Assembly: GCF_002113885.1 (NCBI RefSeq)
Contig: NW_018405342.1
Coordinates: 44,292-108,291, forward strand
Direction: 5' to 3'
Source of the DNA: Mizuhopecten yessoensis
Taxonomy: Eukaryota
DNA length: 64,000 nucleotides
Both the position numbers and the translations under genes were made by a program. Positions 19,786 to 63,203 of this stretch are shown one piece after another (the first letter of the stretch is position 1; each line of letters starts with the position of its first letter). Below the pieces are notes generated by a model that was not told the origin of the DNA, did no database searches, and saw nothing but the letters and a program-made list of their open reading frames with translations.

Positions 19786-20058
19786 AAATGGTGTTTCAGT
19801 ACAGGGTTCACTCCTGTACGAAAGTGGCGTTACAACAACACAAGTCCACTGTCCGAACATCTGAAGACGTGTGCGTACAATCGCCCGGAGGATAAGATCA
19901 TTCCCAAGGACATATGGACATACACCTCCACTACCGGGCATGACAGTACTAGTGCTGACGCCCCCATTATAAGTACCCTTCAACAGCTGAAGCATATGCG
20001 TACAGAGGTCAACCGTTACGACAATTTCTTGGCTGACGTACACATCTCCAAGGCATGA
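19786..20058 (+). CDS. FBXO30: F-box protein 30/40-like, last coding exon
   Basis: Acceptor ttcag|AAA, phase 0. KWCFSTGFTPVRKWRY...SEHLKTCAYN matches the FBXO30/40 C-terminal motif. TGA at 20056-20058. Confidence 0.88.
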   Translation, partial: KWCFSTGFTPVRKWRYNNTSPLSEHLKTCAYNRPEDKIIPKDIWTYTSTTGHDSTSADAPIISTLQQLKHMRTEVNRYDNFLADVHISKA

Positions 20059-37734: not shown

Positions 37735-39930
37735 CACCGACAGTATACTCGACACGAGGACAATATACTCGACACGAGTATTACCAACACCGACAGTATA
37801 CACGACACGAGTATTACCAACACCGACAGTATACTCGACACGAGTATTACATACACCGACAGTATACTCGACACGAGTATTACCTACACCGTCAGTATAC
37901 TCGACACGAGTATTACCTACACCGACAGTATACTCGACACGAGTATTACCTACACCGACAGTATACTCGACACGAGTATTACCTACACCGACAGTATACT
38001 CGACACGAGTATTACCTACACCGACAGTATACTCGACACGAGTATTACCTACACCGACAGTATACTCGACACGAGTATTACCTACACCGACAGTATACTC
38101 GACACGAGTATTACCTACACCGACAGTATACTCGACACGAGTATTACCTACACCGACAGTATACTCGACACGAGTATTACCTACACCGACAGTATACTCG
38201 ACACGAGTATTACCTACACCGACAGTATACTCGACACGAGTATTACCTACACCGACAGTATACTCGACACGAGTATTACCTACACCGACAGTATACTCGA
38301 CACGAGTATTACCTACACCGACAGTATACTCGACACGAGTATTACCTACACCGACAGTATACTCGACACGAGTATTACCTACACCGACAGTATACTCGAC
38401 ACGAGTATTACCTACACCGACAGTATACTCGACACGAGTATTACCTACACCGACAGTATACTCGACACGAGTATTACCTACACCGACAGTATACTCGACA
38501 CGAGTATTACCTACACCGACAGTATACTCGACACGAGTATTACCTACACCGACAGTATACTCGACACGAGTATTACCTACACCGACAGTATACTCGACAC
38601 GAGTATTACCTACACCGACAGTATACTCGACACGAGTATTACCTACACCGACAGTATACTCGACACGAGTATTACCTACACCGACAGTATACTCGACACG
38701 AGTATTACCTACACCGACAGTATACTCGACACGAGTATTACCTACACCGACAGTATACTCGACACGAGTATTACCTACACCGACAGTATACTCGACACGA
38801 GTATTACCTACACCGACAGTATACTCGACACGAGTATTACCTACACCGACAGTATACTCGACACGAGTATTACCTACACCGACAGTATACTCGACACGAG
38901 TATTACCTACACCGACAGTATACTCGACACGAGTATTACCTACACCGACAGTATACTCGACACGAGTATTACCTACACCGACAGTATACTCGACACGAGT
39001 ATTACCTACACCGACAGTATACTCGACACGAGTATTACCTACACCGACAGTATACTCGACACGAGTATTACCTACACCGACAGTATACTCGACACGAGTA
39101 TTACCTACACCGACAGTATACTCGACACGAGTATTACCTACACCGACAGTATACTCGACACGAGTATTACCTACACCGACAGTATACTCGACACGAGTAT
39201 TACCTACACCGACAGTATACTCGACACGAGTATTACCTACACCGACAGTATACTCGACACGAGTATTACCTACACCGACAGTATACTCGACACGAGTATT
39301 ACCTACACCGACAGTATACTCGACACGAGTATTACCTACACCGACAGTATACTCGACACGAGTATTACCTACACCGACAGTATACTCGACACGAGTATTA
39401 CCTACACCGACAGTATACTCGACACGAGTATTACCTACACCGACAGTATACTCGACACGAGTATTACCTACACCGACAGTATACTCGACACGAGTATTAC
39501 CTACACCGACAGTATACTCGACACGAGTATTACCTACACCGACAGTATACTCGACACGAGTATTACCTACACCGACAGTATACTCGACACGAGTATTACC
39601 TACACCGACAGTATACTCGACACGAGTATTACCTACACCGACAGTATACTCGACACGAGTATTACCTACACCGACAGTATACTCGACACGAGTATTACCT
39701 ACACCGACAGTATACTCGACACGAGGACAGTATACTCGACACGAGGACAGTATACTCGACACGAGTATTACCTACACCGACAGTATACTCGACACGAGGA
39801 CAATATACTCGACACGAGTATTACCTACACCGACAATATACTCGACACGAGTATTACCTACCCGACAGTTTACTCGACACGAGTATTACCTACACCGACA
39901 GTATACCCGACACGAGTATTACCTGACACG
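37735..39930. repeat. Highly homogeneous 33-bp minisatellite (about 65 copies)
   Basis: Unit acaccgacagtatactcgacacgagtattacct; 20-bp variants at both edges. Confidence 0.97.
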
Positions 39931-40967
39931 AGTTTTACCTACATTCAATATTGAAGCTGGTTATAATGTTTGTTCAAGACTGAGGCTTTCGCTGTATGTA
40001 TATATGATCGAAATTGATGAAATATTTTGCGAGCAATAAAAGTGCAATATTTGAATTTTATTAAACATATGTTGATTTATCTAACCATATACGTTACGTA
40101 ATCAATTTTTTGTATGACGCCTAAGCCTATATAGCTATATATATACTGTAGATTAATCGAAAATGATATTGATATATCATATTCTGTTTGCTTGATGAAT
40201 GTGACACAATTAACACTTCGGTTCAGCTACTATAACCAATCACATATATTTCATCATATCAGACTTTAGATAGTTGATTTATATCATCATAAATATTACT
40301 TCGTGTCACGTGACTGCTGACTGATAACGATAACGCGGCGGACAAGTTAAAGCATCTCGTACAGGAGTTGTCACCAAAAGTATCACTATCACAGGGAACT
40401 GACACTATTCTATAACAGTTGTAGGAATATTTACTTAATAACAAACCTTGATAAAGGGAGATAATAATACGTCTAATTAAAGTCAATATACAATATATGT
40501 ATGTATACATACTATACAAATTATATATCATTTAAAAAATATATGTGTTTTTCAACGATGTACTTTAAAATTGTACGAAATATTTGATAATAGAATTACT
40601 GCAATATTTCTACCCCTCCCTTAATGACCGGAAAAGACACTATTTTTAGCATACGCTATTTTATACACGCTGCTTTCAATATTTATCAAAGAAGCCAAAG
40701 GCCAGACTTTAAACAAGAAACAATTAACATAATAATGTTCAGTGTTCCCCGGATTTGTTATTTCTTGCATTCACGAGGTCCCCAGACCTTCGATATTTAT
40801 CATGTCTTCAGGGTTCATTATTTCTTTTGTCCCCTGGGGTTCGTCATTTCTTATGTCCCCTATGTAATTACCCCATCCATCTTTTTAATTGTGATAAAAA
40901 TCTGTTATATGTCTGTACCCTATGGTCGATGTATCAGTTATCAGATACCTCTCCATGCTATCACTTA

Positions 40968-42680: not shown

Positions 42681-43349
42681 GTCGGAGAAGACGCGTTCCT
42701 GATTACACAATATATATAACTTGGTCGGTGTAGGCAGTGTGGAACCTTATCGCCAGATCAGAATCCGGACTCCATATAATAATTATTTTTGTCAAATACA
42801 TGTAGTTATTTGTGATTGGAGCAGTTTTGTATACCTGATACTTCTAGTTTTGCAAAGACCATTCGTACAGTATCTGCGCGGCACACGCCTTAACAACCAG
42901 TTCCGTTCTACTTCCGGTTAAACGGATTCCAGATCAGACATAACTTTTTCCCGATTTATTATCATTTACGTATAAATATTGCCAGTGTGACGGAAGTAAT
43001 TAAAACGTTGAAATATAGGGTCGTTATCATAGTCTACATCACATCAATACCATCTGCACTTAAGGTCTGGCCTGTTTCTATATGACTACTTCTTAACTGA
43101 CCAAGAATGTTTCCGCAATATTTTTTGACATCAATGTTTAGTTTTGCGCATTGTTCTATTGCATGCATGCAAGTGTACAACACATATCTACATATATGGT
43201 AGCTTTAACTGGAAAGTTGGAGGGGGGTTCCCTTAATAACGACATATTTGATTGGTACATGTATTTTACTTATTTTCTTTTCTTTCATTCATTACACGTC
43301 ATTACTCGAATCAATTCTTTACGTGTTACAGAAAATCCCGACAGGAAAA

Positions 43350-45152
43350 ATGTCGGCTGAGCTACCATTGGTTACTTCATCAGAAGATACAGGGGACTAC
43401 TTCCGGTGTGACCTTCATGCAAAGCGCCTGGAGTATCTGTGTGACACACATGGGTATCACGTGTGCGCGGACTGTGCGGTGTTCGATCACAGAGACTGTA
43501 TCATTGTCTCCACGAAAACGACAAGCAAACACAAGAAATTATCCTGCAACATCTCTCCAGTTCTCATACTGGCCGCACATCGCATCGGAGATGTGAATCC
43601 GAAACTCGGCCGACTCTTACAAAGTCGGGACGCAGTGTCGCTTACCCTAGACAACTATTACCAGAAGCTTAGAGATGCGATCGACGCCGCTGAAAGTGAA
43701 CAATATTCACAACTGGATTTTCTCTTTAACATAGAAGAAACCCGTCTCTTGGCCTGGAAGGACGAGTGTCAACAGCTGATGGACAAAGCAAAGACTCGAC
43801 TAGAGAGTGTCAGGAAAGGGGAAACAACTTCTATTGATAAAATTACCAAGGAAATAGGGCTCATTAAGACGCACCTTGAAGATAATCTACGAGGAAATGA
43901 CACAAACGTGTCATTCACTTTTGTGGGGGACACAGACTTTGACAAAGACGTGGAAACGTTTTCGCTGCTTCCGGGTAAAATTGTCGTAAAGCACGAACCT
44001 TTGGTCACGCGTGCACAACCAGAAAGCAACGACGAGAAAGAGTGGACAGGAATCAACCCGCAATCACCTGCTATTTTGTCTGAAAGTGATTCCGAAAATT
44101 TCGTGGATATTCCCCTGGATGGAGCAACGTCAAACTCGATCAATAAAGGCGATGCCGTGAATATCAAACTGCAAGAAGAAACGCAAGATGACGTCGCTGA
44201 AAGACGAAGCTCAAGTTATGATGAAACAGCACAAGAAAATAAAATCCTTGAATGTGTAGATCCATCTTCTTTGTCCTTGTCTACTCGTGGAAGATCGATG
44301 TCTGTGATGAATGCCGGGTACTCTCTCACTTTGAAGAGTTCAATAAACGCGCGCATGCCCAGTGACAACTCCCCCAGCTGGTTAACAGGTGCCACGTTTC
44401 TTGTTAACAACAGTATAGCACTGGCAGACAGAAAGAACAAAAAAATCAAACTATTTTCAAGTGCCCTTCACTGTATCTCCGAAGTGGTCATACCGTCTTA
44501 CCCTTTCGACATTGCTCAGACAGGAGACTTCAACTTAGTAGTGACTGTACCCAGAAATAAGCGCGCACTCTTCTTCCACTCAGAGGATCTTAAAACGTGT
44601 CCAATGTTTATTGACACGGAGCAGACATGTCTTGGTGTGTCTTGCTCAAAAGAGGTAATCGCCATCGTGTGCGAGACGTCATGGACCAAATCTATCACCA
44701 TTAAACTATACGACAATTCTGGGTCCTTGACTCGTAAAGTCTCAAAGATCGACGACAATCGGGAATTGGCATTTACGTCTGATTATATTTCTATTTGCCC
44801 CGTATCTGGAAACATTGCATTCAGAAATGGCGTCAATTTGTTTTATACAACATCAGAGGGTGATCTTTTATGGAAATCTATTATTCCAAACCAGTTGCTG
44901 AGCAACAGCATCAGAGGTATCTCTATCTTAAATGGCGGCGTCCTCGTCGTGTTTGACGTAAGTGTGTTCTACGTCACTTCAGATGGCCGACAGTGGAAGA
45001 CGGTGATGTCATTCAGCAAGCAGAGCAGCCCAAGTGCAGTGTGTGTGAGCAGAAGCAAAAGCAGCGTGCTCATCACACACGCAGACCCCTTCAGGAATCG
45101 GTCGGAAAACAACGTCGTCGATGTATTCACACTATCACAGAGGTTCGAATGA
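43350..45152 (+). CDS. B-box2 + coiled-coil + NHL/beta-propeller TRIM-like protein (RING-less), 600 aa, single-exon CDS
   Basis: B-box CDLHAKRLEYLCDTHGYHVCADCAVFDHRDC, then a helical region and NHL-like blades (NNSIALADRKNKKIKLFS, YPFDIAQTG). ATG at 43350, just after a splice acceptor ttacag at 43331. Confidence 0.85.
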   Translation: MSAELPLVTSSEDTGDYFRCDLHAKRLEYLCDTHGYHVCADCAVFDHRDCIIVSTKTTSKHKKLSCNISPVLILAAHRIGDVNPKLGRLLQSRDAVSLTLDNYYQKLRDAIDAAESEQYSQLDFLFNIEETRLLAWKDECQQLMDKAKTRLESVRKGETTSIDKITKEIGLIKTHLEDNLRGNDTNVSFTFVGDTDFDKDVETFSLLPGKIVVKHEPLVTRAQPESNDEKEWTGINPQSPAILSESDSENFVDIPLDGATSNSINKGDAVNIKLQEETQDDVAERRSSSYDETAQENKILECVDPSSLSLSTRGRSMSVMNAGYSLTLKSSINARMPSDNSPSWLTGATFLVNNSIALADRKNKKIKLFSSALHCISEVVIPSYPFDIAQTGDFNLVVTVPRNKRALFFHSEDLKTCPMFIDTEQTCLGVSCSKEVIAIVCETSWTKSITIKLYDNSGSLTRKVSKIDDNRELAFTSDYISICPVSGNIAFRNGVNLFYTTSEGDLLWKSIIPNQLLSNSIRGISILNGGVLVVFDVSVFYVTSDGRQWKTVMSFSKQSSPSAVCVSRSKSSVLITHADPFRNRSENNVVDVFTLSQRFE

Positions 45153-46477: not shown

Positions 46478-49179
46478 CACTTAGGGAGATCGAAACATGA
46501 ACTCGCATAAGAGGCGATGTTTAAGAAAATGTATTTCATGTTTCATGAATCGGATAAGAAATGATGATGATGATGATTACAACAATGATGTTGTTTGTAT
46601 GTCATCATGATGATGATTTAATGATGTATCAGTTACGTAATTTGATGCCATGATGATGTTTAGGTTTGAGTTGGGAGTGTTTAGAATATGTGAGAAATAA
46701 AATGGAAAAGTGTAGAGAAATGACGCCAAAATTTAATTCATAATCTCAGTGATCTTGATTTTTACCCAAAAACGGAATCAAGAACAAGTTGGTCATTGAT
46801 ATTTATTTTAACAAACTTGGTTGCATTTACCCTGGCATACCACAGGCCAAATATCATGTCCCTAGACCTCTTGGTTTAATTTTCCATCACATTGACCCCT
46901 AATTTGAACCCGAACATGGGTCAAGACTTATTTGAATAGCCCTCTATCACAGTATACTACGGCCAAATACATTTGACCACTGTGAATACGAAAGTCGGTC
47001 AAGTTCATTCAGTTGAACTTGATAGCCATCCATCCCTGCAATCAACAGTATCTTGATGAAGTCGTTTAAAGACTAACATATATGACCCTGTGATTTAGAT
47101 CACTCATTTGAGCAAGTTTGATAGGCCTCTTCCGCAGCAAGCTACCGACCATATTCCATCACGCTTAGTCACGGTATCACGGTAAATCAGAGAGAATGTT
47201 TAAGGTTCAAGGCATGTTCAAAGACCTCACAATTAAAAATCTAAACTTATATATGTTATTTGTATACTTAATTTATAGTATATTGAACTTGTACATTGGC
47301 TGTACAAATATACATAACCAGGTTAAGGTAGTCAAAAATAAGGTATTAAGGCTGATGTCTACATAAAAATAGCTCACTGGACTTATAACATGTCAATCTC
47401 TTTTGCGATCAAACCGAGTGCTGAGAAATGACCCATAATTTAAAGTTCATTGATTTCTCTTCTACTAGCTGTTGAGAGGAATTCCGACCTCAAATAAAGA
47501 TAGATTTTGACATGCGAAACCCCTAAAATCAGAGTAAAATACCCTGGTAATACATCCCGCTAAGTAACCTTGATCGATAAATGAACTTTACATGATGTGC
47601 CATTTGATAACATCCTGTGATTATATGAATGCGCGAGACATGTTATAAACATTGAAGCTGAAAAGTCACTTTGTTTATAACAAATCTAGCTCTTTCATGG
47701 AAACATTGAATGTTAAGAAAGGACATTTTATATGAAGTTTAAGTAGTGTTCTTGGTCAAAGGTCTATTGTTTATACACATATAAACCGGTAAAATATGTT
47801 ACGCGGACGTTTTCTATGATTTTTGTACTTTCCCATAGCAACAATCATCTTCTTGTGAGGCCAGAATTCCTCTTTACACATAGTTAAAGAGAAACAAAGC
47901 CCCGCATGACCTAGGTTTATAAAGGATCTTCAAATAATATGTCATTTCGTAACATTCAGTTGGGTCGCTGAAGAAATTGACATATTATAAATCTGGTGAG
48001 CAACTTTTATCATTACATCAGCCTTAATGCCGTATTTTGACTTCGTTAACATGATTATGTACCTTTTTTAATATTTCATGTACAATTTCAATATATTTAA
48101 ATTACATATATATATTCCGATTTTTAATAAGGAAATTTGAATATGACTTGCCAGGGGGCTGAAATTTAGGGTGACTATTACATCTTTAAGGGGGCATGTT
48201 GAACCTTAAAGAAAAGATGAAAGGTTCCACACCATGGCAAAGCTTATATTTGCCATTCTTGCAGACAAGCTGTTGATTGAAGTTTAGCATCAGAGTGGTG
48301 AAGAGAACTTGGAGAGGGAAAATTTGAACAGGAGTTAATTCAGACAAAGCTGGAGAATCAAGGCTTTTTAGAAACTTAATTGATCGCATTGTGGAGTATG
48401 CAAATAAGCAGTATCCCAATATGTCAATCCTTCTCCTGTCGTTGGTTATCATGGTAAATAGTATGGAGGGATTTATAAGAAGATCTACAACAATGTCTTT
48501 ACATGATACTCCAAATGATTCTAGTACAGATCCGTATGATGGTCCAAAGGATTACCCACATAACATAAAACATGACAGGCAAAATTTTACATTAAAACCT
48601 GCAGAATTTATTGTCATCCAATAACTCCATATCTCAGACAAAATCCTTAACATACAAAAACAAACATCTATTAAACATTCCTCACATGCCCCACACTCTA
48701 TTAACATTTCTCAAATTATCTACACATGCCTCACATTCTCCTAAAATTCCTCACATTTTCTAAATATTCCCCACATTCTCCTAACATTCCTCACAATTTC
48801 TAAGCAATCTTCACATTCTCTAAATATTCCTCACATTCTCTTAACTTCTTTACATTGTCTATACAAATATGTAAATTTGCAATATTACATTATGTTCACA
48901 TATTCTATAAACACTTTCCTGATAATCTACAAAACACATTCCTTATATAAACAAATTCACAAATGACTGTTTTTTTCTGTTTTTCACCCTAGCTCTTACA
49001 ACACACTGTGGTGTCCCCGAGTTATCTTACGCAGTACGAATTCCAATCTAATGGTCCAGGCTCCGGTCAGTAAACAGTAAACTGACTCAATTCACCATCT
49101 TGAGTTATCAATGGCAATTGCTTTCTTTTCAAATGTCAGCAGAATGCAATGATTTGATCATCATGCAATTTACTTTGAG

Positions 49180-50585
49180 ATCACTTGATGTAACATGAGG
49201 TTAAAACAATAGGTTTATACATGTAAGCTCACTTGATGTAACATGAGGTCAGACAATAGGGTTATACATGTAAGCTCACTTGATGTAACATAAGGGCAAA
49301 CAATAGTTTTATACATGTAAGCTCACTTGATGTAACATGAGGTCAGACAATAGGTTTACACATGTAAACTCACTTGATGTAACATGAGGGCAAACAATAA
49401 GTTTATACATGTAAGCTCACTTGATGTAACATAAGGGCAGACAATAGTTTTATACATGTAAGCTCACTTGATGTAACATGAGGGCAGACAATAGTTTTAT
49501 ACATGTAAGCTCACTTGATGTACCATGAGGGCAGACAATAGGTTTACACATGTAAACTCACTTGATGTAACATGAGGGCAGACAATAGGTTTACAAATGT
49601 AAACTCACTTGATGTAACATGAGGGCAAACAATAGGTTTACACATGTAAACTCACTTGATGTAACATGAGGGCAAACAAGTTTATACATGTAAGCTCACA
49701 GGATGTAACATGAGGGCAGATACTAAGTTTATACATGTAAGCTCACATGATGTAACATGAGGGCAGACAATAGGTTTATACATGTAAGCTCACTTGATGT
49801 AACATGAGGGCAGACAATATGTTTACACATGTAAACTCACTTGATGTAACATTAGGGCAAACAAGTTTATACATGTAAGCTCACAGGCTGTAACATGAGG
49901 GCAGATCCTAAGTTTATACATGTAAGCTCACATGATGTAACATGAGGGCAGACAATAGGTTTATACATGTAAGCTCACTTGATGTAACATGAGGTCAGAC
50001 AATAGGTTTATATATGTAAGCTCACAGGATGTAACATGAGGTCAGACAATAGGTTTACACATGTAAACTCACTTAAAGTAACATGAGGGCAGACAATAGG
50101 TTTATATATGTAAGCTCACAGGATGTAACATGAGGTCAGACAATAGGTTTACACATGTAAGCTCACTTGATGTAACATGAGGTCAGACAATAGGTTTACA
50201 CATGTAAACTCACTTGATGTAACATGAGGTCAGACAATAGGTTTACATATGTAAACTCACTTGATGTAACATGAGGGCAAACAATAGGTTTATACATGTA
50301 AACTCACTTGATGTAACATGAGGTCAGACAATAGGTTTATACATGTAAGCTCACTGGATGTAACATGAGGGCAGACAATAGGGTTACATATGTAAGCTCA
50401 CTTGATGTAACATGAGGTCAGACAATAGGTTTATACATGTAAGCTCACTTGATGTAACATGAGGGCAGACAATAGGTTTATACATGTAACTATGCTCACT
50501 TGATGTCACACGAAGGCAGATAAGAGGTTGATACAGGTAAGCACACTTGATGTAACACGAGGGCAGATAAGAGGTTAATACAGGT
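49180..50585. repeat. 47-bp minisatellite (about 30 copies)
   Basis: Unit catgtaagctcacttgatgtaacatgagggcagacaataggtttata. Confidence 0.95.
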
Positions 50586-50751
50586 GTTTATTTCAAGATC
50601 GAGATACAGTTAATAAATTTCTTTTTGAAGTGTGTACTAGATAATTTAGATATAGGCTGATTTCCCTATTTGCATTTTCATTTTTTTATAATAAAAAATG
50701 GTATCAATTGAGAGATAGAGATATAACAACAGCCATCTGGGTAGGTGTCTT

Positions 50752-50877
50752 TGAAGTAGACTGGGTCAATTACTGGTCACCAGGTAACTCAGTAGATTGG
50801 ATTGTTAGTCTACAGCTTTGGATGTCTTAGATTTGAATCTCTATCTGACTGTTATATTAGTAATTTTCCCTGTCACA
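50752..50877 (+). mobile_element. Degenerate solo LTR of the tRNA-containing TRIM family
   Basis: gactgggtcaattactggtcaccaggtaactcagtag aligns to 59849-59887 and ends in ccctgtcaca. Confidence 0.5.
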
Positions 50878-51379
50878 TTAAGGTTATTAAGTTACTGCTG
50901 AGAAAATGTTAAGTTCACACAAAAACTATCGAGTAACAGTGAAAATATCAATCCCCAACCCATCTCTACCAACTCTGCTGACTGTATAGTAATGCTCATA
51001 CTCAACAGACAAATAACTCAGACCCAGTAACCTGTTCAGGACAGATATGGTTAATATTTCTTAAGTCATCAGAATAGCTCTGAAGATAAATTTGGATTGT
51101 TATATTGTAATTGACTCTTCAGGTAATCATATCAATAGAAATAGCCTGGGTTGTGTACCGGTCGGAGATCTAGGACCCCTTCACCAGTTCTTGGGATACA
51201 TATAGCTTCAGTACTTGGCATTCACCCCCCCTGAATAAGCCTCCGAAATAATTTCAGTGGCAGCCAGATGCCTACCCCTCAGAAGTTCAATTGTGTCCCC
51301 TAAATAATATCATTGGTTAGTTTCCTACGAGTCTAACAGCTATTTGTCAGCTCTTCATCCCCCTTGAGTCAGACACTGT

Positions 51380-54300
51380 TAGTTTAAGTGGTGGCCAGAC
51401 ATTTATCCTCAGCTCTACCATCCTCACAATCACACACTGTTACACTATATGTAGTTTGAGTGGTGGCCAGACATCTATCCTCAGTGTGACCATCCCCGCA
51501 ATCAGACACTGTTACACTATATATCTATCCTCAGTGTGACCATCCCCGCAATCAGGCACTGTTACACTATATGTAGTTTGAGAGGTGGCCAGACATCTAT
51601 CCTCGGCTCTACCATCGCCGCAATCAGACACTGTTACACTATCTACCATCCTCACAATCACACACTGATACACTATATGTAGTTTGAGTGGTGGCCAGGC
51701 ATCTATCCCTCAGCTCTACAATCCCCGCAATCAGACACTGTTACACTATATGTAATTTGAGTGGTGGCCAGACATCTATCCTCAGCTCTACCATCGCCGC
51801 AATCACACACTGTTACACTATATGTAGTTTGAGTGGTGGCCAGACATCTATCCTCAGCTCTACCATCGCCACAATCAGACACTGTTACACTAAATGTAGT
51901 TTGAGTGGTGGCCAGACATCTATCCTCAGCTCTACCATCCCCGCAATCAGACACTGTTACACTATATGTAGTTTGAGTGGTGGCCAGACATCTATCCTCA
52001 GCTCTACCATCGCCGCAATCAGACACTGTTACACTATATGTAGTTTGAGTGGTGGCCAGACATCTATCCCTCAGCTCTACCATCCCCGCAATCAGACACT
52101 GTTACACTATATGTAGTTTGAGTGGTGGCCAGGCATCTATCCCTCAGCTCTACCATCCCCGCAATCAGACACTGTTACACTATATGTAGTTTGAGTGGTG
52201 GCCAGGCATCTATCCCTCAGCTCTACCATCCCCGCAATCAGACACTGTTACACTATATGTAGTTTGAGTGGTGGCCAGGCATCTATCCCTCAGCTCTACC
52301 ATCCCCGCAATCAGACACTGTTACACTATATGTAGTTTGAGTGGTGGCCAGGCATCTATCCCTCAGCTCTACCATCCCCGCAATCAGACACTGTTACACT
52401 ATATGTAGTTTGAGTGGTGGCCAGGCATCTATCCCTCAGCTCTACCATCCCCGCAATCAGACACTGTTACACTATATGTAGTTTGAGTGGTGGCCAGGCA
52501 TCTATCCCTCAGCTCTACCATCCCCGCAATCAGACACTGTTACACTATATGTAGTTTGAGTGGTGGCCAGGCATCTATCCCTCAGCTCTACCATCCCCGC
52601 AATCAGACACTGTTACACTATATGTAGTTTGAGTGGTGGCCAGGCATCTATCCCTCAGCTCTACCATCCCCGCAATCAGACACTGTTACACTGTAAGTAG
52701 TTTGAGTTGTGGCCAGGCATCTATCCCTCAGCTCTACCATCGCCGCAATTAGACACTGTTACACTATATGTAGTTTGAGTGGTGGCCAGGCATCTATCCC
52801 TCAGCTCTACCATCCCCGCAATCAGACACTGTTACACTATATGTAGTTTGAGTGGTGGCCAGGCATCTATCCCTCAGCTCTACCATCCCCGCAATCAGAC
52901 ACTGTTACACTATATGTAGTTTGAGTGGTGGCCAGGCATCTATCCCTCAGCTCTACCATCCCCGCAATCAGACACTGTTACACTATATGTAGTTTGAGTG
53001 GTGGCCAGGCATCTATCCCTCAGCTCTACCATCCCCGCAATCAGACACTGTTACACTATATGTAGTTTGAGTGGTGGCCAGGCATCTATCCCTCAGCTCT
53101 ACCATCCCCGCAATCAGACACTGTTACACTATATGTAGTTTGAGTGGTGGCCAGGCATCTATCCCTCAGCTCTACCATCCCCGCAATCAGACACTGTTAC
53201 ACTATATGTAGTTTGAGTGGTGGCCAGGCATCTATCCCTCAGCTCTACCATCCCCGCAATCAGACACTGTTACACTATATGTAGTTTGAGTGGTGGCCAG
53301 GCATCTATCCCTCAGCTCTACCATCCCCGCAATCAGACACTGTTACACTATATGTAGTTTGAGTGGTGGCCAGGCATCTATCCCTCAGCTCTACCATCCC
53401 CGCAATCAGACACTGTTACACTATATGTAGTTTGAGTGGTGGCCAGGCATCTATCCCTCAGCTCTACCATCCCCGCAATCAGACACTGTTACACTATATG
53501 TAGTTTGAGTGGTGGCCAGGCATCTATCCCTCAGCTCTACCATCCCCGCAATCAGACACTGTTACACTATATGTAGTTTGAGTGGTGGCCAGGCATCTAT
53601 CCCTCAGCTCTACCATCCCCGCAATCAGACACTGTTACACTATATGTAGTTTGAGTGGTGGCCAGGCATCTATCCCTCAGCTCTACCATCCCCGCAATCA
53701 GACACTGTTACACTATATGTAGTTTGAGTGGTGGCCAGGCATCTATCCCTCAGCTCTACCATCCCCGCAATCAGACACTGTTACACTATATGTAGTTTGA
53801 GTGGTGGCCAGGCATCTATCCCTCAGCTCTACCATCCCCGCAATCAGACACTGTTACACTATATGTAGTTTGAGTGGTGGCCAGGCATCTATCCCTCAGC
53901 TCTACCATCCCCGCAATCAGACACTGTTACACTATATGTAGTTTGAGTGGTGGCCAGGCATCTATCCCTCAGCTCTACCATCCCCGCAATCAGACACTGT
54001 TACACTATATGTAGTTTGAGTGGTGGCCAGGCATCTATCCCTCAGCTCTACCATCCCCGCAATCAGACACTGTTACACTATATGTAGTTTGAGTGGTGGC
54101 CAGGCATCTATCCCTCAGCTCTACCATCCCCGCAATCAGACACTGTTACACTATATGTAGTTTGAGTGGTGGCCAGGCATCTATCCCTCAGCTCTACCAT
54201 CCCCGCAATCAGACACTGTTACACTATATGTAGTTTGAGTGGTGGCCAGGCATCTATCCCTCAGCTCTACCATCCCCGCAATCAGACACTGTTACACTAT

Positions 54301-57300
54301 ATGTAGTTTGAGTGGTGGCCAGGCATCTATCCCTCAGCTCTACCATCCCCGCAATCAGACACTGTTACACTATATGTAGTTTGAGTGGTGGCCAGGCATC
54401 TATCCCTCAGCTCTACCATCCCCGCAATCAGACACTGTTACACTATATGTAGTTTGAGTGGTGGCCAGGCATCTATCCCTCAGCTCTACCATCCCCGCAA
54501 TCAGACACTGTTACACTATATGTAGTTTGAGTGGTGGCCAGGCATCTATCCCTCAGCTCTACCATCCCCGCAATCAGACACTGTTACACTATATGTAGTT
54601 TGAGTGGTGGCCAGGCATCTATCCCTCAGCTCTACCATCCCCGCAATCAGACACTGTTACACTATATGTAGTTTGAGTGGTGGCCAGGCATCTATCCCTC
54701 AGCTCTACCATCCCCGCAATCAGACACTGTTACACTATATGTAGTTTGAGTGGTGGCCAGGCATCTATCCCTCAGCTCTACCATCCCCGCAATCAGACAC
54801 TGTTACACTATATGTAGTTTGAGTGGTGGCCAGGCATCTATCCCTCAGCTCTACCATCCCCGCAATCAGACACTGTTACACTGTAAGTAGTTTGAGTGGT
54901 GGCCAGGCATCTATCCCTCAGCTCTACCATCGCCGCAATTAGACACTGTTACACTATATGTAGTTTGAGTGGTGGCCAGGCATCTATCCCTCAGCTCTAC
55001 CATCCCCGCAATCAGACACTGTTACACTATATGTAGTTTGAGTGGTGGCCAGGCATCTATCCCTCAGCTCTACCATCCCCGCAATCAGACACTGTTACAC
55101 TATATGTAGTTTGAGTGGTGGCCAGGCATCTATCCCTCAGCTCTACCATCCCCGCAATCAGACACTGTTACACTATATGTAGTTTGAGTGGTGGCCAGGC
55201 ATCTATCCCTCAGCTCTACCATCCCCGCAATCAGACACTGTTACACTATATGTAGTTTGAGTGGTGGCCAGGCATCTATCCCTCAGCTCTACCATCCCCG
55301 CAATCAGACACTGTTACACTATATGTAGTTTGAGTGGTGGCCAGGCATCTATCCCTCAGCTCTACCATCCCCGCAATCAGACACTGTTACACTATATGTA
55401 GTTTGAGTGGTGGCCAGGCATCTATCCCTCAGCTCTACCATCCCCGCAATCAGACACTGTTACACTATATGTAGTTTGAGTGGTGGCCAGGCATCTATCC
55501 CTCAGCTCTACCATCCCCGCAATCAGACACTGTTACACTATATGTAGTTTGAGTGGTGGCCAGGCATCTATCCCTCAGCTCTACCATCCCCGCAATCAGA
55601 CACTGTTACACTATATGTAGTTTGAGTGGTGGCCAGGCATCTATCCCTCAGCTCTACCATCCCCGCAATCAGACACTGTTACACTATATGTAGTTTGAGT
55701 GGTGGCCAGGCATCTATCCCTCAGCTCTACCATCCCCGCAATCAGACACTGTTACACTATATGTAGTTTGAGTGGTGGCCAGGCATCTATCCCTCAGCTC
55801 TACCATCCCCGCAATCAGACACTGTTACACTGTAAGTAGTTTGAGTTGTGGCCAGGCATCTATCCCTCAGCTCTACCATTGCCGCAATTAGACACTGTTA
55901 CACTATATGTAGTTTGAGTGGTGGCCAGGCATCTATCCCTCAGCTCTACCATCCCCGCAATCAGACACTGTTACACTATATGTAGTTTGAGTGGTGGCCA
56001 GGCATCTATCCCTCAGCTCTACCATCCCCGCAATCAGACACTGTTACACTATATGTAGTTTGAGTGGTGGCCAGGCATCTATCCCTCAGCTCTACCATCC
56101 CCGCAATCAGACACTGTTACACTATATGTAGTTTGAGTGGTGGCCAGGCATCTATCCCTCAGCTCTACCATCCCCGCAATCAGACACTGTTACACTATAT
56201 GTAGTTTGAGTGGTGGCCAGGCATCTATCCCTCAGCTCTACCATCCCCGCAATCAGACACTGTTACACTATATGTAGTTTGAGTGGTGGCCAGGCATCTA
56301 TCCCTCAGCTCTACCATCCCCGCAATCAGACACTGTTACACTATATGTAGTTTGAGTGGTGGCCAGGCATCTATCCCTCAGCTCTACCATCCCCGCAATC
56401 AGACACTGTTACACTATATGTAGTTTGAGTGGTGGCCAGGCATCTATCCCTCAGCTCTACCATCCCCGCAATCAGACACTGTTACACTATATGTAGTTTG
56501 AGTGGTGGCCAGGCATCTATCCCTCAGCTCTACCATCCCCGCAATCAGACACTGTTACACTATATGTAGTTTGAGTGGTGGCCAGGCATCTATCCCTCAG
56601 CTCTACCATCCCCGCAATCAGACACTGTTACACTATATGTAGTTTGAGTGGTGGCCAGGCATCTATCCCTCAGCTCTACCATCCCCGCAATCAGACACTG
56701 TTACACTATATGTAGTTTGAGTGGTGGCCAGACATCTATCCTCAGCTCTACCATCCCCGCAATCAGACACTGTTACACTATATGTAGTTTGAGTGGTGGC
56801 CAGACATCTATCCCTAAGCGCTACCATCCCCGCAATCAGACACTGTTACACTATATGTAGTTTGAGTGGTGGCCAGGCATCTATCCCTCAACTCTACCAT
56901 CGCCGCAATCAGACACTGTTACACTATATGTAGTTTGAGTGGTGGCCAGACATCTATCCCTCAGCTCTACCATCTCCTAGAGATCAATCCCTGGTAGTTT
57001 TAATGGTGGCCAGACATCTATCCTCAGCTCTACCATCACCGCAATCAGACACTGTTACACTATATGTAGTGTTAGTGGTAGTCAGGCATCTATCCCTCAG
57101 CTCTACCATCGCTGCAATCAGACACTGTTACACTGTAAGTAGTTTGAGTTGTGGCCAGGCATCTATCCCTCAGCTCTACCACTGCCGCAATCAGACACTG
57201 TTACACTATATGTAGTTTGAGTGGTGGCCAGACATCTATCCCTCAGCTCTACCATCCCCGCAATCAGACACTATTACACTATGTGTAGTTTGAGTGGTGG

Positions 57301-57548
57301 CCAGGCATCTATCTCTCAGCTCTACCATCCCCGCAATCAGACACTGTTACACTGTAAGTAGTTTGAGTGGTGGCCAGGCATCTAACCTCAGCATGACCAT
57401 CCCCGCAATCAGACACTGTTACACTATATGTAGTTTGAGTGGTGGCCAGGTATCTATCCCTCAGTGTTACACTATATGTAGTTGTGGCCAGGCATCTATC
57501 CCTCAGGGTTACACTATATGTAGTGGTGGCCAGACATCTATCCCTCAG
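51380..57548. repeat. 73-bp satellite array (about 84 copies; 72-bp and 42-bp variants at the edges) abutting the ZCCHC17 stop codon
   Basis: Unit catctatccctcagctctaccatccccgcaatcagacactgttacactatatgtagtttgagtggtggccagg. Confidence 0.97.
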
Positions 57549-57600
57549 AACTGCTTGAACTGTCATACTTCTTGCTTTTATGATGCTTATGTTTTTGTTT
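57538..57600 (-). CDS. ZCCHC17: ZCCHC17 probable last coding exon
   Basis: Acceptor tttcag|AAA, phase 0. Encodes KQKHKHHKSKKYDSSSSSEG then TAG, continuing the K/S-rich tail. Confidence 0.75.
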   Translation of the reverse strand, partial: KQKHKHHKSKKYDSSSSSEG

Positions 57601-57994
57601 CTGAAATTAAAAAAATAGCATTTGCAGATAAAAGCTGATTTATGACTTTTGTATTCTCTATGAAACACTTAAGCATAATAGCGTTCACTGTCACTTTAAG
57701 AAACTAATGTTTCAAAAATCACCAGATTTTGGAACAGTCAAGATTACAGAAAACAAACTAAAATATTTCCAGCAAAATAACAAGATTACCATGTTTTGAA
57801 ACGTTTCTACCATTTTAGACTTTAATTTTAAGTTCTGTTTGATAAATCCAGACATGTTTCTCTTCCAAACTTTTATTTAGAAATTCCATCCGGTTTAAAA
57901 TTATCTAAAAAGAACACCTGCGATTGTCAGCAGCGTTGGTACATGACCTTAACTAATGACCTTGACATTAAGATATATGACCTTTATATCCTAC

Positions 57995-58096
57995 CTTCCT
58001 GTGCCGCTCCTCGTCACTACTATCTTCTGATGAAGCCTGTTTTTGGTGTTTGTGCTTCTTGTGTTTTTTCTTCTCCTTTTTGGGCTTTTTTTCTTT
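57995..58096 (-). CDS. ZCCHC17: ZCCHC17 Lys-rich exon
   Basis: Encodes KEKKPKKEKKKHKKHKHQKQASSEDSSDEERHRK. GT-AG bounded, phase 0/0. Confidence 0.85.
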
Positions 58097-58855
58097 CTGT
58101 GAAACCAGGATCAGCATTGTACAACAACAAAACTGTAACAGCAGTTAATTATCCTACCTGACATTCACCTTGTCACTGAAAGAATTACACACTAAGAAAC
58201 AAGGGACATTTTCATTTATGTGAAAATAGACAATTTTACCACTTTCAAACGAAAACTTACTTGGTACTGTTTAGCAATGTCTTAGATTTAAATTTGTTTC
58301 TCCATGTAACCAAAACTTGTTACTTTCTAAATAGACTTCTTATCTAAATTATATCAATATTTTAGATTATGCTATATTAGCGTATATAACTATGTCAATT
58401 TTTATTGTTTACTATATTAGCATGTATGTATATTAGGCACATGCCATTTAATTGATGAAATTCCTTTGCATGAAACTTTATGCATTCTGTGATACTCTTA
58501 ACTAAGATAACTGTGATATAACCTTATATATGTCGATTGCATCAATATATATGTAACTTTTAACTAGCACATGTTTTTTACTAGCAAGATTACCATGTTT
58601 ATTTATATATCGATTGCGTAAATATGTTATTTTATCTAACACATGTATTTCACTAACAAGAGGACCATGTGGAAGATTAGCCCTTGGCTAAACATGTATT
58701 TTATCCTCAATAAATAAAGTTTATTATTATTATAAACAACCAGTTCGTCTACTCAACATATTTTCTCTGATTTACTGAAATTCAGATAAGTACATCTGAG
58801 TACCTGAACAGGTACCAAAATCAAACAAATAACAGCCGTTTATAAATAAAATTAC

Positions 58856-58983
58856 CTTCCTTTTCTTCTTCAGTGAGGAACTCTCTTCCTCTGATAACTC
58901 CGGAAATCCATCATCCTCCAGGTCAGGGACCAACTCGTAGGATTTACCTCCCTTTGTGTGAAAACAATCCTGTGCTAAATGTC
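58856..58983 (-). CDS. ZCCHC17: ZCCHC17 exon (second half of the zinc knuckle)
   Basis: Encodes GHLAQDCFHTKGGKSYELVPDLEDD...KKKRK. Confidence 0.92.
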
Positions 58984-59334
58984 CTATGATATCAACAACG
59001 AGAAAAAGTTTTATATATATATATATACAGAAGACTAAGAAATATGGTATATTCATATTGAAGTGTTATATTAAGGACAGATTTGACCCTGTATTGATTC
59101 AGTACCAATTTCTGAAGAATATTTTGCTTAGTTTTAAAACGTTTTATGGCCATAAGATTTGTCAATGGTGAAAAGTTTTATAAACCTCAATACTGTCTTT
59201 AATCTCACAATATCTAACGATATGTTTAAGGTTTTCTGAATGTTAAACACAGTCCAACAAATAAATAAATACCAGAATGACGTGAAACTTTAAGTATTAA
59301 ACAAAGAATTCCACAGAGTAATTAACACATGTAC

Positions 59335-59435
59335 CATGTCCTCCACACTTGCGACATGTGGTGTCCAGGACTGCCCCGAGTTCTATTTTTGGTCTCCCAC
59401 CTCTCACGCCTTGCTTCTTCTGCCGATTGTCCAAG
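59335..59435 (-). CDS. ZCCHC17: ZCCHC17 exon (first half of the CCHC knuckle)
   Basis: Encodes LDNRQKKQ...KIELGAVLDTTCRKCGGH. The acceptor is AAG. Confidence 0.9.
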
Positions 59436-59619
59436 CTTAAAGGTACGACAGGAAGCATGTTACATTCTCTACATGTACATATTAAATTTTGGGCTATGAA
59501 TAAAGAAATCGGATATGTACATAGTAGGGTCCTTATGCCTAAATATATTTCTTTACAGTATTTGTGCATTGGATGTAAAAATGTTGGTTACATGTCCAGG
59601 ATATGATACAAGTGTCAAA

Positions 59620-59963
59620 AGTCAGCAACCAGATAGCTGCATTGGAAGAGCATCCATCCAGAAATTAAAGGGTCCCAGCTTTGAATCCCGGTTTGGACAT
59701 TGCGTTTTTCTTTCTCCTGTTACAAAATCTGTCAGCTTGCCAACACTGGGTGAATTTTGGCAGGGTGATACTTGATCCTGGGGTTGTGAAAAGTTGTGTC
59801 TTTGGTGGCAAAGTCTTAGATAAAGGAGGGAGGAATGTAGTGGAACTGGACTGGGTCGATTGTTGGCGACCAGGTAGCTCAATTGGTAGAGCGTCCGTCT
59901 CGAGTTCGGAGGGGCCCGTGTTGAATCAAGTCTGGCCATTGTGTCCCTCTTTCTCCTGTTACA
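59620..59963 (+). mobile_element. TRIM (miniature LTR retrotransposon) with tRNA-like LTRs, Helenus-like, in a ZCCHC17 intron
   Basis: Two direct repeats end in tttctcctgttaca (59724, 59963). A polypurine tract aaaggagggaggaa directly precedes the TG start of the 3' LTR (59836). A-box tagctcaattggtagagc lies inside the LTR. Confidence 0.62.
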
Positions 59964-60323
59964 CAAGGATCTCCAAATTGCAGATGGCTGATCTAAATAA
60001 TTGAGTTTCTTTGTCAGTGTTGTTTAACCCAGTCCATTTCCACTACATATAAAATTGAGGCCTGTAGGGTTTATCTAGCTTACCTTAACATATTATGGCC
60101 TAGTAAATACATATCAACATCTTTTTAGTTAGAGCTTAGTACATGCATATGTTAACATGTACATGGTTAGGGCCTAGAAAATGCATATATATGTTAACAT
60201 CTTTACAGCTAGGGCCTAGTACATACATATGTTAACATGTACATGGTTAGGACCTGGTGTATCAAATGTACAACATACCCTGTACTTGGTATGTAAATAA
60301 TTGGGGCCATGAGTAATGTATAC

Positions 60324-60403
60324 CTTAACTGTACATTGGTAGGGTCCTCATCTTGACCAGTCGTCTGGTTAACACACTTCATAGACAAGGACACCTTATC
60401 ATC
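60324..60403 (-). CDS. ZCCHC17: ZCCHC17 exon (end of the S1 domain)
   Basis: Encodes DDKVSLSMKCVNQTTGQDEDPTNVQL. Confidence 0.92.
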
Positions 60404-60644
60404 CTGTTGATGAAAAGATGTAAATGTGTACTTCAATATCATAGAATAGCTTTTCGGTAAACAATCCATAGAAAAGGTCATCTTATATATTCTGCCCTCA
60501 GAAATCAGTAAATCATGATTGTGTAATCTTTTTTTAATAAACATTTTACAGAGAAGTTATTTTTATTATCCTTCCTATCTGACAGAAATCAGAACATGGT
60601 CTTTATTTTCTATTTTCATTTTTATTTTTATTTTTTTGTAGGGC

Positions 60645-61130
60645 GTTTGGGTTACTTATGCTCGGTGACATAAGATAAGGTTTGGGTCACTTATGCTCGG
60701 TGAAATGAGATAAGGTTTGGGTTACTTATGTTCGTTGACATAAGATAAGGTTTGGGTCACTTATGCTCGGTGACATAAGATAAGGTTTGGGTTACTTATG
60801 CTCGGTGAAATAAGATAAGGTTTGGGTTACTTATGCTCGGTGACATAAGATAAGGTTTGGGTTACTTATGCTTGGTGAAATAAGATAAGGTTTGGGTTAC
60901 TTATGCTCGGTGAAATAAGATAAGATTTGGGTTAGTAATGCTTGGTGAAATAAGATAAGGTTTGGGTTACTTATGCTCGGTGAAATGAGATAAGGTTTGG
61001 GTTACTTATACTCGGTGAAATAAGATAAGGTTTGGGTTACTTATGCTCGGTGAAATGAGATAAGGTTTTGGTTACTTATGTTCGTTGAAATAAGATAAGG
61101 TTTGGGTTACTTATACTCGGTGAAATAAGA
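60645..61130. repeat. 35-bp minisatellite (about 14 copies), intronic
   Basis: Unit gtttgggttacttatgctcggtgaaataagataag. Confidence 0.93.
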
Positions 61131-61489
61131 TCCTAAAATGTAACACACTTTGACAGAAAATATATCATTCCAAACACCATTTACATCTGGAACACTGCTA
61201 GACAAAGTCATTCGCCTTAAATCAATCAAGCATCTACTTTTACACAGTTTTAAACCTGTTTGAAAGATATCTTTAGACTGTTGTTTCCTTTTTTTAGTAA
61301 GTGTTAACTACGACACTGCTCTTTATCATAATTTCCCCCAGTCCGGAGAAAATGACTTAACTGTTTATGGTTGATTGATTATTGATTGATTATGTTAACT
61401 GTTTATGGTTGGTTGATTATGTTAACTGTTTACGATTGATTGATTATGTCCAGCCCTACCAAGTTTACCTTCATTAGACATGTCCTTAC

Positions 61490-61590
61490 CTCGATAGAGA
61501 TAACTTTACACTGCACTTTTTCTCCGACACTCAACATCTCGGTCGGGTCATCAACTCTGGCCTTGGACATCTGGGATTTGTGTACTAGAC
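61490..61590 (-). CDS. ZCCHC17: ZCCHC17 exon (S1 domain)
   Basis: Encodes GLVHKSQMSKARVDDPTEMLSVGEKVQCKVISIE. Confidence 0.93.
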
Positions 61591-61665
61591 CTGAATTATA
61601 TTGACATCAAGTGGTTTTTACACCAAGACTTCAACAGGTCTGCCAAAGTAAAATTCTGTTTCTGG

Positions 61666-62385
61666 TTTACCTAACTACCCTAGTTCTAAGTCTGTCAGTG
61701 TCCTACATGATTTACCTAACTACCCTAGTTCTAAGTCTGTCAGTGTCCTACATGATTTACCTAACTACCCTAGTTATAAGTCTGTCAGTGTCCTACATGA
61801 TTTACCTAACTACCCTAGTTCTAAGTCTGTCAGTGTCCTACATGATTTACCTAACTACCCTAGTTCTAAGTCTGTCAGTGTCCTACATGATTTACCTAAC
61901 TACCCTAGTTATAAGTCTGTCAGTGTCCTACATGATTTACCTAACTACCCTAGTTCTAAGTCTGTCAGTGTCCTACATGATTTACCTAACTACCCTAGTT
62001 ATAAGTCTGTCAGTGTCCTACATGATTTACCTAACTACCCTAGTTATAAGTCTGTCAGTGTCCTACATGATTTACCTAACTACCCTAGTTCTAAGTCTGT
62101 CAGTGTCCTACATGATTTACCTAACTACCCTAGTTCTAAGTCTGTCAGTGTCCTACATGATTTACCTAACTACCCTAGTTATAAGTCTGTCAGTGTCCTA
62201 CATGATTTACCTAACTACCCTAGTTCTAAGTCTGTCAGTGTCCTACATGATTTACCTAACTACCCTAGTTCTAAGTCTGTCAGTGTCCTACATGATTTAC
62301 CTAACTACCCTAGTTCTAAGTCTGTCAGTGTCCTACATGATTTACCTAACTACCCTAGTTATAATTATGTCAGTGTCCTACATGA
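61666..62385. repeat. 45-bp minisatellite (16 copies), intronic
   Basis: Unit tttacctaactaccctagttctaagtctgtcagtgtcctacatga. Confidence 0.95.
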
Positions 62386-63145
62386 TGTATATTTTTGTTA
62401 AGCCTAATAGTTTAAATAAACCGATTACAAAACTTCAAGATTTCCCAATTCACTCTGCCTTTCCAATTTGTTTCAGAAAATCAATTAGAATCCATGTTTA
62501 ATTGAGATTGAAAGCTGACTGCAGACTTACAATAATTGTTTACATCATGTCAAATACCACTAACCAATTGTATTTCAGTGTTTTTCCAGAGCTAGTAAGT
62601 ATACACCCGTCTTTTAATTATTCAATTTTGCCATAATGCCACCACCAATTCACCTTACCCTTTTAAAACCTTGAGTATTGCTTAGGCCAAAAAGTAATGT
62701 GTATTAAGGTTTCTGATCAACCATATTGCTTTCTTGCAAACCCTTAAGTTCTTGACCTTGCCATTTTAAACACATTTTAAAAATATATTAATTATATTTC
62801 ACAAGCATTTAGTCTTAAAATTCTAAAGATGGGGATATAACTTAATCAGTAGTCTTCATTTTATCATAATAATTTAACAGCATGCTCTGATGTAGAAGTT
62901 CCATCACTATGTATATGTAGTATATGATTATCTACTGTATTCAATCCAACTGTGATCATAAGACATAAAAACACTCCCTATCATTTTTTTCCAGTCAAAG
63001 AGTCCCACCTTAACAAAAATTTACCAACTTACTAGAAATCACATCTTTCATGGATATTTTTTAAGAATTTTGGAAAGTTTTGCAATCATTCAAATTTTCC
63101 CAAAATTCTAAACATCCAGGGCACCGATTACATCAAATACCTTAC

Positions 63146-63203
63146 CTTGTTTTTTAGAATCAGGAATCTTTATAAATGCCCCATAAGACTTCACACTAGC
63201 CAC
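63146..63203 (-). CDS. ZCCHC17: ZCCHC17 (pNO40) exon, start of the S1 domain; upstream exon(s) lie beyond the window
   Basis: Encodes VASVKSYGAFIKIPDSKKQG. GT-AG bounded. Confidence 0.9.

Follow-up and report, generated by a model that had tools for sequence, protein, structure and literature searches.

The closest known counterparts of the repeat array described here are the VNTRs of 3' UTRs and the 'mirage' repeats of amphioxus. Mirage clusters in Adh3 and the globin genes BflGb6 and BflGb9 consist of copies that were born from an exon-intron boundary of the gene itself and carry its splice signals. Their centre is homogenised and their edges are excluded, and their length differs between haplotypes with the output of the gene reported as undisturbed (PMC3087553). 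The 37-bp VNTR in intron IVS7 of human F7 has a first unit that overlaps the end of an exon; the most upstream copy of its signal, a 5' splice site, is the one used and the downstream copies are silent (PMC1557585). The 40-bp VNTR of human SLC6A3 (DAT1) is a single-locus variable minisatellite of 3-11 copies in a 3' UTR, for which the available excerpts describe no overlap with a stop codon (PMC8502797, PMC4472402). Coding arrays behave differently: one-base losses at a repeat of the last-exon VNTR of human CEL can alter the C-terminal tail, the stop-bearing unit of mouse Prdm9 lies at the array edge, and both genes have coding, in-frame units with the stop in or after the last of them (PMC8692231, PMC3890296). 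In the Yesso scallop, the species of the protein P0001 considered below, minisatellites of 9-11 kb have been confirmed by PCR and used as chromosome markers; they are built of short units over several kilobases and were assigned to one chromosome pair, and the excerpted text mentions neither their placement relative to genes nor a 73-bp unit (PMC4856933). Within the literature covered, to which most subscription papers do not belong, no paper was found that deals with the present array or with the UTR of ZCCHC17 in a mollusc.

The array lies at the 3' end of the scallop ZCCHC17 gene, in a stretch of 64,000 nucleotides that was analysed as a whole (the window; Table 1). With the amphioxus mirages it shares a likely origin from its own gene, the exclusion of its edges, a variable length and an undisturbed product; unlike them, it spans the boundary between coding sequence and UTR and copies a stop codon rather than splice signals, comprises 86 units versus 3-6 in BflGb6 and is likely kept in the mRNA. 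As in F7, the first unit overlaps the end of an exon and the most upstream signal would be the one used, the signal here being a stop codon and the array exonic instead of intronic. It resembles the SLC6A3 repeat, which has far fewer copies, as a variable single-locus minisatellite that likely lies in a 3' UTR, and the Yesso marker arrays in its multi-kilobase length and short units. The stop-bearing unit is at the edge, as in Prdm9; it is the first one, in contrast to Prdm9 and CEL, and in-frame translated units of the CEL type are absent. Taken together, we consider it probable that the array is a single-locus minisatellite which arose from an old stop region and is now a variable, likely neutral passenger of the 3' UTR, with translation ending at the first stop.

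Within the window, ZCCHC17 comprises seven minus-strand exons bounded by AG/GT, which join into an open frame with the end ...DSSSSSEG*; their conceptual product is identical to the C-terminal 210 residues of NCBI protein P0001. An S1 RNA-binding domain (PF00575, E 2.7e-12) precedes a CCHC zinc knuckle (PF00098, E 5.3e-4, narrowly below the curated cut-off) and a Lys/Ser-rich tail, as in ZCCHC17/pNO40, and a homologue search with the product returned matches named as ZCCHC17 orthologues. Contigs of sequencing runs X1, X11, X12 and X13 were compared over the gene, and those of X1, X12, X13 and X15 over the far flank of the array, together five of the 16 runs that contain the stretch. Over the gene, the contigs show coding SNPs at 58004, 58902 and 58931. 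X1 is a DNA run; X11-X13 were assigned to RNA by guess, with which their spliced joints agree, and X15 is a putative RNA run. The splice from 57995 to 57600 that an earlier note had postulated was recovered in RNA contigs of three studies (X11, X12 and X13) and is absent from the DNA run X1. Its presence in 3/3 RNA-type runs rules out a different terminal exon.

Table 1. Features at the 3' end of scallop ZCCHC17 (window coordinates unless another sequence is named).
Feature	Position	Strand	Remarks
ZCCHC17 coding exon 1	L011:2214-2107		outside window
ZCCHC17 coding exon 2	63146..63203	-	AG/GT ends and P0001 match
ZCCHC17 coding exon 3, S1 domain	61490..61590	-	
ZCCHC17 coding exon 4	60324..60403	-	
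ZCCHC17 coding exon 5, first half of zinc knuckle	59335..59435	-	RNA joint 58982-59334 in X12 and X13
ZCCHC17 coding exon 6	58856..58983	-	RNA joints in X12 and X13
ZCCHC17 coding exon 7	57995..58096	-	RNA joint 57600-57995 in X11, X12 and X13
ZCCHC17 last exon, coding part, end S-E-G-TAG	57538..57600	-	stop 57540-57538; three-G run 57544-57542
Single-locus minisatellite, 86 units, mostly 73 bp	51380..57548	-	57 units identical; edge units diverged on both sides
Array unit 1, 42 bp	57507..57548	-	coding end and stop in its first 11 bases
Array unit 2, 42 bp	57465..57506	-	number of 42-bp units differs among animals; joint 57521-57438 in X12 and X13
77-codon frame opened by one-base loss, hypothetical	57309..57542	-	in no run or protein
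ATTAAA in aberrant unit 9	56999..57004	-	22% U downstream (U-poor); minor poly(A) signal at best
Decayed older copy of stop region	51256..51284	-	23/29 bases match, two of them coding bases that precede unit 1
Single-copy DNA beyond array, likely distal 3' UTR	50586..51377		RNA contigs end to end
First AATAAA after stop	50587..50592	-	6945 nt past stop; RNA contigs run past
Second minisatellite, 47 bp, about 30 copies	49181..50582		also in RNA contigs
AATAAA, predicted main 3' end	48607..48612	-	8925 nt past stop; most U/GU-rich downstream of 12 candidates

The array is clearly non-random, consisting of head-to-tail units with 97% matches (TRF score 11016). The 57 identical units all lie in its centre and variant units at both edges; the homogeneity of the centre could partly be a product of assembly. 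In line with the earlier note, the array begins inside the coding sequence and its first unit supplies the stop: unit 1 starts at 57548, after the first 52 bases of the last exon, and includes the stop, located 8-10 bases into the unit, but no splice site. The overlap with the ZCCHC17 frame amounts to only eight coding bases plus the stop. The claim of 73-bp units, each with the same core, holds for the length of most units; units 1 and 2, the former bearing the stop, are 42 bp long, and an exact 14-base core occurs in 71 of the 86. Likewise, the G run that had been placed at 57541-57544 does consist of three Gs, at the corrected position given in Table 1. Three Gs are present in 74/86 units and, as the note had seen for edge units, a form with one G fewer occurs as well (11/86: unit 4, which carries another substitution, units 9 and 13, and eight of the last nine units). 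Each unit holds a stop, an ATG immediately after it and a short reading frame, and the main 73-bp unit has stops in two of three frames, so that the array is no coding repeat. Unit number is variable. The joint 57521-57438 in X12 and X13 corresponds to a minimum of one additional 42-bp unit after the stop compared with the window, so that 2/4 runs carry an extra unit at the array start; X1 has the layout of the window, and the X11 contig ends at the branch point and is undecided. This supports in part the suggestion of a repeat-driven 3' UTR length. Ratios of summed unit depth to flank depth, which are hints and not copy numbers, were about 10 in X13, 36 in X15, 61-69 in X12 and 142-154 in X1, with 86 units in the window; for the 47-bp array, the ratio in X1 was 28, with about 30 copies in the window.

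The old ZCCHC17 stop region is the likely source of the array, since the S-[E/D]-G-stop end is common to other scallops, mussels, oysters and a limpet and since the unit occurs at a single locus. In a comparison made on proteins, those of Pecten (P0002), Argopecten (P0004) and Ylistrum (P0005) end at the same alignment column as P0001, and of the 15 other homologues closest to it, 11 end in [D/E]G; on these alignments, the stop predates the array. Searching the genome for the unit, as the note had proposed, gave 80/80 core-pattern matches and 41/41 DNA matches within this array, the only candidate place in an assembly that may be incomplete; the lack of any copy elsewhere in it rules out a multi-locus satellite family. 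At 100-130 bases beyond the array, a degraded version of the stop region is present, with a score reached by 1/1000 shuffles. The earlier note had left open whether the satellite grew from the stop region or captured the 3' end of the gene, and outgrowth is the reading that these data support. Capture, in which a pre-existing satellite inserted at the end of ZCCHC17 and brought a new stop codon, would account for the stop being physically part of unit 1, yet three other scallop genera and more distant molluscs share the protein end, and no further copy turned up in the assembly or in the two collections scanned (0 matches in metagenome or viral contigs, a weak search as scallop DNA is rare there); we regard it as extremely improbable. 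Under outgrowth, local slippage or unequal exchange would have duplicated the old stop region in tandem, after which the centre would grow and homogenise, leaving the edges out. The protein would remain unaffected, because the upstream edge of unit 1 has no homologous partner and ribosomes would stop at the most upstream TAG. Loss of one G would indeed open a frame whose stop ends at 57309, comprising 77 codons, and turnover could conceivably move the two-G variant into unit 1, so that a read-through protein about 76 residues longer would segregate. The nearest two-G unit is 147 bases from the stop, several such units match unit 1 over 20 bases downstream of the G run, and the frame, open in the window, is probably open in X1 too, in which the mismatches (5 + 3 = 8) fit a window-like unit 4; moreover, one-base losses in the human CEL VNTR can make harmful tails (PMC8692231). 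Against this, unit 1 matches 85/85 other units at no more than four bases upstream of the G run, so that an exchange must resolve in a window of 4-6 bases. The length of the frame is unremarkable, being reached by 504/2000 shuffled units (25%) in the same 42-42-73-72-73 layout and by 17/2000 shuffles once the repeat structure is destroyed. The proposed polymorphism of the C-terminus is further opposed by a stop exon that is intact, with three Gs and without gaps, in the contigs of 4/4 runs (X1, X11, X12 and X13), by the absence of other letters at 57438-57600 in the three RNA-type runs, and by the repeat peptide occurring in 0/120 homologues and, in a weak search, in none of 2271 longer candidate proteins. 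A rare two-G allele could escape, as contigs keep the majority allele and those compared came from 4 of the 16 runs that contain the stretch. The conserved terminus across bivalves suggests, from protein sequence, selection against change. Read-through is thus hypothetical, and a segregating longer protein very unlikely.

ATTAAA is, as noted earlier, the sole poly(A)-like hexamer in the array, the only AATAAA or ATTAAA there, 533 nt past the stop. The mRNA nevertheless likely extends 7-9 kb beyond the stop instead of 535 nt, and 57004 is probably not the main 3' end, since unique DNA on the far side of the array is covered by RNA contigs. In X11, X12 and X13, spliced contigs extend out of the last exon, across units 1 and 2 and into unit 3, placing the array start in spliced mRNA; units of the far-end type occur in RNA contigs of X11 and X12, and 50586-51377 is covered in 3/3 RNA runs, of which X12 and X13 also join across the intron 57600-57995. 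No contig bridges the array and the contigs are strandless, and an mRNA of the same origin that ends early at the ATTAAA, a usable signal, is therefore an alternative, albeit an unlikely one. The distal RNA would then belong to another transcript, candidates being a non-coding RNA or the long 3' UTR of a convergent plus-strand B-box gene (ORF end at 45152), and the summed unit depth in X13, only about 10x the flank, would be compatible with a short UTR. However, the early site lies in a single aberrant unit with U-poor sequence downstream, a B-box transcript would have to pass eight AATAAA/ATTAAA signals between 45799 and 50690, and, as a weak hint, depth beyond the array is similar to that of the coding contig (13-17 versus 10.4 in X12, 15-23 versus 16.2 in X13). 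With the long mRNA preferred, one transcript would cross the whole array, giving a 3' UTR of 7-9 kb in which the array is a neutral passenger, neutrality being assumed. Alternatively, array length may set UTR length and thereby tune the stability or translation of ZCCHC17 mRNA, through long-UTR decay or through the stop, ATG and short frame of each unit. Unit number does vary, units are present in RNA, unit/flank depth ratios differ widely (although they are not copy numbers), and the SLC6A3 VNTR 'may affect' expression (PMC8502797). On the other hand, no Rfam match was found in 47000-58200, four array units fold worse than 199/200 shuffles (z = +1.78), leading us to reject a structured RNA, and such arrays are widespread: tandem repeats make up 18% of the remaining window and 26% of the ZCCHC17 span 57601-63203. 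Tuning by length is accordingly improbable. Slightly more doubtful still is its fullest form, a heritable dial in which several-fold length differences of a 7-9 kb UTR, made mostly of copies of the gene's own stop, would adjust the level of the splicing-associated ZCCHC17. The array has the appearance of an ordinary variable repeat, not of a switch.

The locus offers a clean case of a minisatellite that was likely born from the stop region of a gene, in which the conserved protein end fixes the direction of origin. The array could be used as a polymorphic marker in this farmed species. If the mRNA crosses it, it would also supply 3' UTRs of naturally differing length, all on a single conserved gene, for studying how very long repetitive UTRs act on mRNA decay in a mollusc. 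Most likely the array itself matters little; a read-through allele would matter more if true, but nothing shows its existence.

Some minor candidates were rejected. The hypothetical read-through peptide gave a single sub-threshold Pfam match (DUF5126, 17 bits versus a cut-off of 27), an apparent coding allele in loose ends at 51480 was a mixed consensus of two contigs, and a second decayed unit at 51350-51283 was not significant (60/1000 shuffles scored as well). Finally, an RNA-only junction between 50963 and 48739, for which the preferred reading does not account, is present in 3/3 RNA runs.

ZCCHC17 is encoded on the minus strand by seven AG/GT-ended exons within the window, from 63203-63146 down to 57600-57538, which yield 210 codons with the C-terminal end DSSSSSEG-stop. 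The first coding exon (L011:2214-2107, on a longer stretch) lies 2.1 kb outside the window. The product contains an S1 domain and a zinc knuckle and is identical to the 246-residue NCBI protein P0001, labelled Mizuhopecten yessoensis nucleolar protein of 40 kDa-like; since this entry was probably annotated on the same assembly, it does not count as independent support. Human ZCCHC17 is reported to bind splicing proteins (PMC10055234).

Public runs were used to evaluate the terminal splice and the stop codon. Part of the gene end is covered by 16 of the 18 listed runs, and five different runs were examined, in every case as contigs; X11, X12 and X13 come from three studies and are presumed to be RNA. 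Positions 57600 and 57995 are joined in contigs of these three runs and unjoined in the DNA run X1. The terminal splice proposed in the earlier note is thus borne out in all three RNA-type runs, and an alternative terminal exon that skips 57538-57600 is rejected on these runs. Over 57438-57600, contigs of X11, X12 and X13 show no other letters and no gaps, and over 57396-57757 the X1 contig shows two other letters and no gaps. On this basis the stop is intact in all four runs, subject to contigs retaining only the majority allele. Single-base exonic differences from the window occur at 58004 (four of four runs), 58902 (two of four) and 58931 (one of four), and could serve as allele markers.

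From its start at 57548, 8 bases ahead of the stop, the array comprises 86 units, of which the first two are 42 bp and the remainder mostly 73 bp; 57 are identical. The earlier note describes the locus correctly, except for an offset of one base and for the size of the stop-bearing unit, which is 42 bp. The three-G run, at 57544-57542 in unit 1, is kept in 74 of the 86 units, and the two-G form is found in 11, eight of them among the last nine units. Most units carry an ATG directly after the copied stop, opening a frame of 9 codons (7 in unit 1), and dozens of such stop-start mini-frames are thus strung along the array. A variant unit pair recurs at units 24-25, 37-38 and 67-68 (55943-55798, 54994-54849 and 52804-52659) in an otherwise identical centre, which points either to duplications of several units at once or to the assembly.

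The stop appears to be older than the array. Orthologues from Pecten, Argopecten and Ylistrum end in SSSS[E/D]G at the same alignment column as M. yessoensis ZCCHC17; the relative P0003 ends two columns further on with a different tail. A C-terminal [D/E]G is present in 11 of the 15 closest other homologues, among them two mussels, three oysters and a limpet; in more distant homologues the end is variable. All 80 matches to a 16-base core pattern across the 988-Mb assembly fall inside the array, and a DNA search of the assembly with three array units returned no other place. Furthermore, 51284-51256 holds a decayed stop-region copy with 23 of 29 bases matching, a score reached in one of 1000 shuffles; the match takes in two bases of coding sequence that lie ahead of unit 1. 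As the unit begins with an old protein's conserved terminus and is absent elsewhere, the comparison is most simply read as local growth of the array from the stop region, the first of the two origins (growth or capture) put forward in the earlier note. In published models, minisatellites are born by slippage, at repeats that are either short or non-contiguous (PMC3389668).

Of the 16 closest proteins, 12 retain the [D/E]G end (57538-57546), and 17 of the top 35 end in G, even though the tail ahead of it is of low complexity. The extreme C-terminal end may have a role.

Loss of one G from unit 1 would exchange the last residue for 77 new ones, ending at 57309. Any stop codon is one base from read-through, and the real question is therefore whether the array makes read-through likely or long. 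A frame of at least 77 codons arose in 17 of 2000 trials when all 543 bases were shuffled outright, and in 504 of 2000 when one unit was shuffled and the 42-42-73-72-73 layout rebuilt; in an unrelated 33-bp array in the window, four frames are open over 683-768 codons. Arrival of the two-G variant in unit 1, resulting in a C-terminal polymorphism, is favoured by the identity of unit 1 to several two-G units over 20 bases downstream of the G run, and by the nearest unit of that type lying merely 147 bases away. Upstream of the run, 82 of the 85 other units agree with unit 1 over 4 bases and the remainder over fewer. Bringing in the two-G form by unequal exchange would probably require resolution within a 4-6 base window. 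Moreover, the read-through peptide is found in none of 120 homologues (the best 120 of 261 matches, lengths 135-431), nor, in a weak test, among 2271 longer candidate proteins. We consider such a polymorphism very improbable, and with the three-G run intact in four of four runs the earlier proposal of one is unsupported.

Length variation, on the other hand, is seen in the 3' UTR. Spliced contigs of X12 and X13 depart from the window layout at 57438 and rejoin it at 57521, corresponding to at least one extra 42-bp unit, and an X11 contig ends exactly at this branch point; X1 has the window's layout except for the last bases of unit 3. Proximal 3' UTR length thus differs from the window in two of four runs, and the predicted repeat-driven UTR length is partly supported, for this proximal part. 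Summed unit depth relative to single-copy depth, which is not copy number, is 142-154 in X1, 61-69 in X12, 36 in the RNA-type run X15 and 10-11 in X13. Since the X1 ratio for a 47-bp array (28) agrees with its 29.9 window copies, this hints that the assembled 86 units may be too few for some alleles.

Regarding the mRNA end, sequence downstream of ATTAAA at 57004 is U-poor; the first AATAAA lies at 50592 and, among 12 candidates, the one at 48612 has the most U/GU-rich downstream stretch. RNA contigs of X12, X13 and X15 cover single-copy 50586-51377 without gaps and continue past 50592 into the 47-bp minisatellite (49181-50582), which starts about 5 bases past AATAAA 50592-50587 and is entered in all three runs. 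Unit junctions confined in the window to the array's far end are present in X11 and X12. The contigs are strandless and none from the examined runs bridges the array. A plus-strand B-box gene ending at 45152 faces this region and could supply the RNA as a convergent transcript, but this transcript would then have to run through as many as 8 of the gene's own signals. The simplest reading, and a likely one, is a single 7-9 kb ZCCHC17 3' UTR spanning the 73-bp, 47-bp and small 40-bp arrays. Loose ends in each of the three RNA runs show a junction from 50963 back to 48739 (2.2 kb, enclosing the 47-bp array) that is absent from X1. Its flanks are both single-copy in the assembly, and on neither strand do its ends form a canonical splice pair; it would be compatible with a tandem-duplication allele as well as with a circular RNA.

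The array works in the manner of amphioxus mirage repeats (PMC3087553) and the F7 IVS7 VNTR (PMC1557585), in which duplicates of a gene's signal follow the genuine one and only the first is used. Mirage repeats span a splice site whereas the scallop array spans a stop, which places it outside that definition; we class it as a 3' UTR VNTR. The papers listed by literature searches include no description of it. We conclude that the array is a real, locally born and variable minisatellite at the coding/UTR boundary. It is likely neutral, and the long repeat-filled UTR is likely as well.

For M. yessoensis, PCR-confirmed arrays of 9-11 kb have been reported (PMC4856933). Tandem repeats make up 18% of the window outside the array and 26% of the ZCCHC17 span 57601-63203, and the intron between coding exons 6 and 7 carries a high-copy dispersed repeat (58220-58771) matched by hundreds of X1 DNA contigs. 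The two long single ORFs listed below are alike in build and, in our reading, resemble TRIM-like genes.

Other features of the window
Feature	Position	Strand	Remarks
Minisatellite, 38-42 bp units	60128-60255		ZCCHC17 intron
Minisatellite, 35 bp units	60645-61131		ZCCHC17 intron
Minisatellite, 45 bp units	61666-62386		ZCCHC17 intron
33-bp minisatellite, about 62 copies	37739-39940		Three plus frames open (745, 745, 768 codons), one minus (683)
Long single ORF	43209-45152	+	Weak B-box match
Long single ORF	28328-29716	-	Only weak coiled-coil-type match
F-box gene with TRAF-like zinc finger	15836-20058	+	Main ORF 17004-18662
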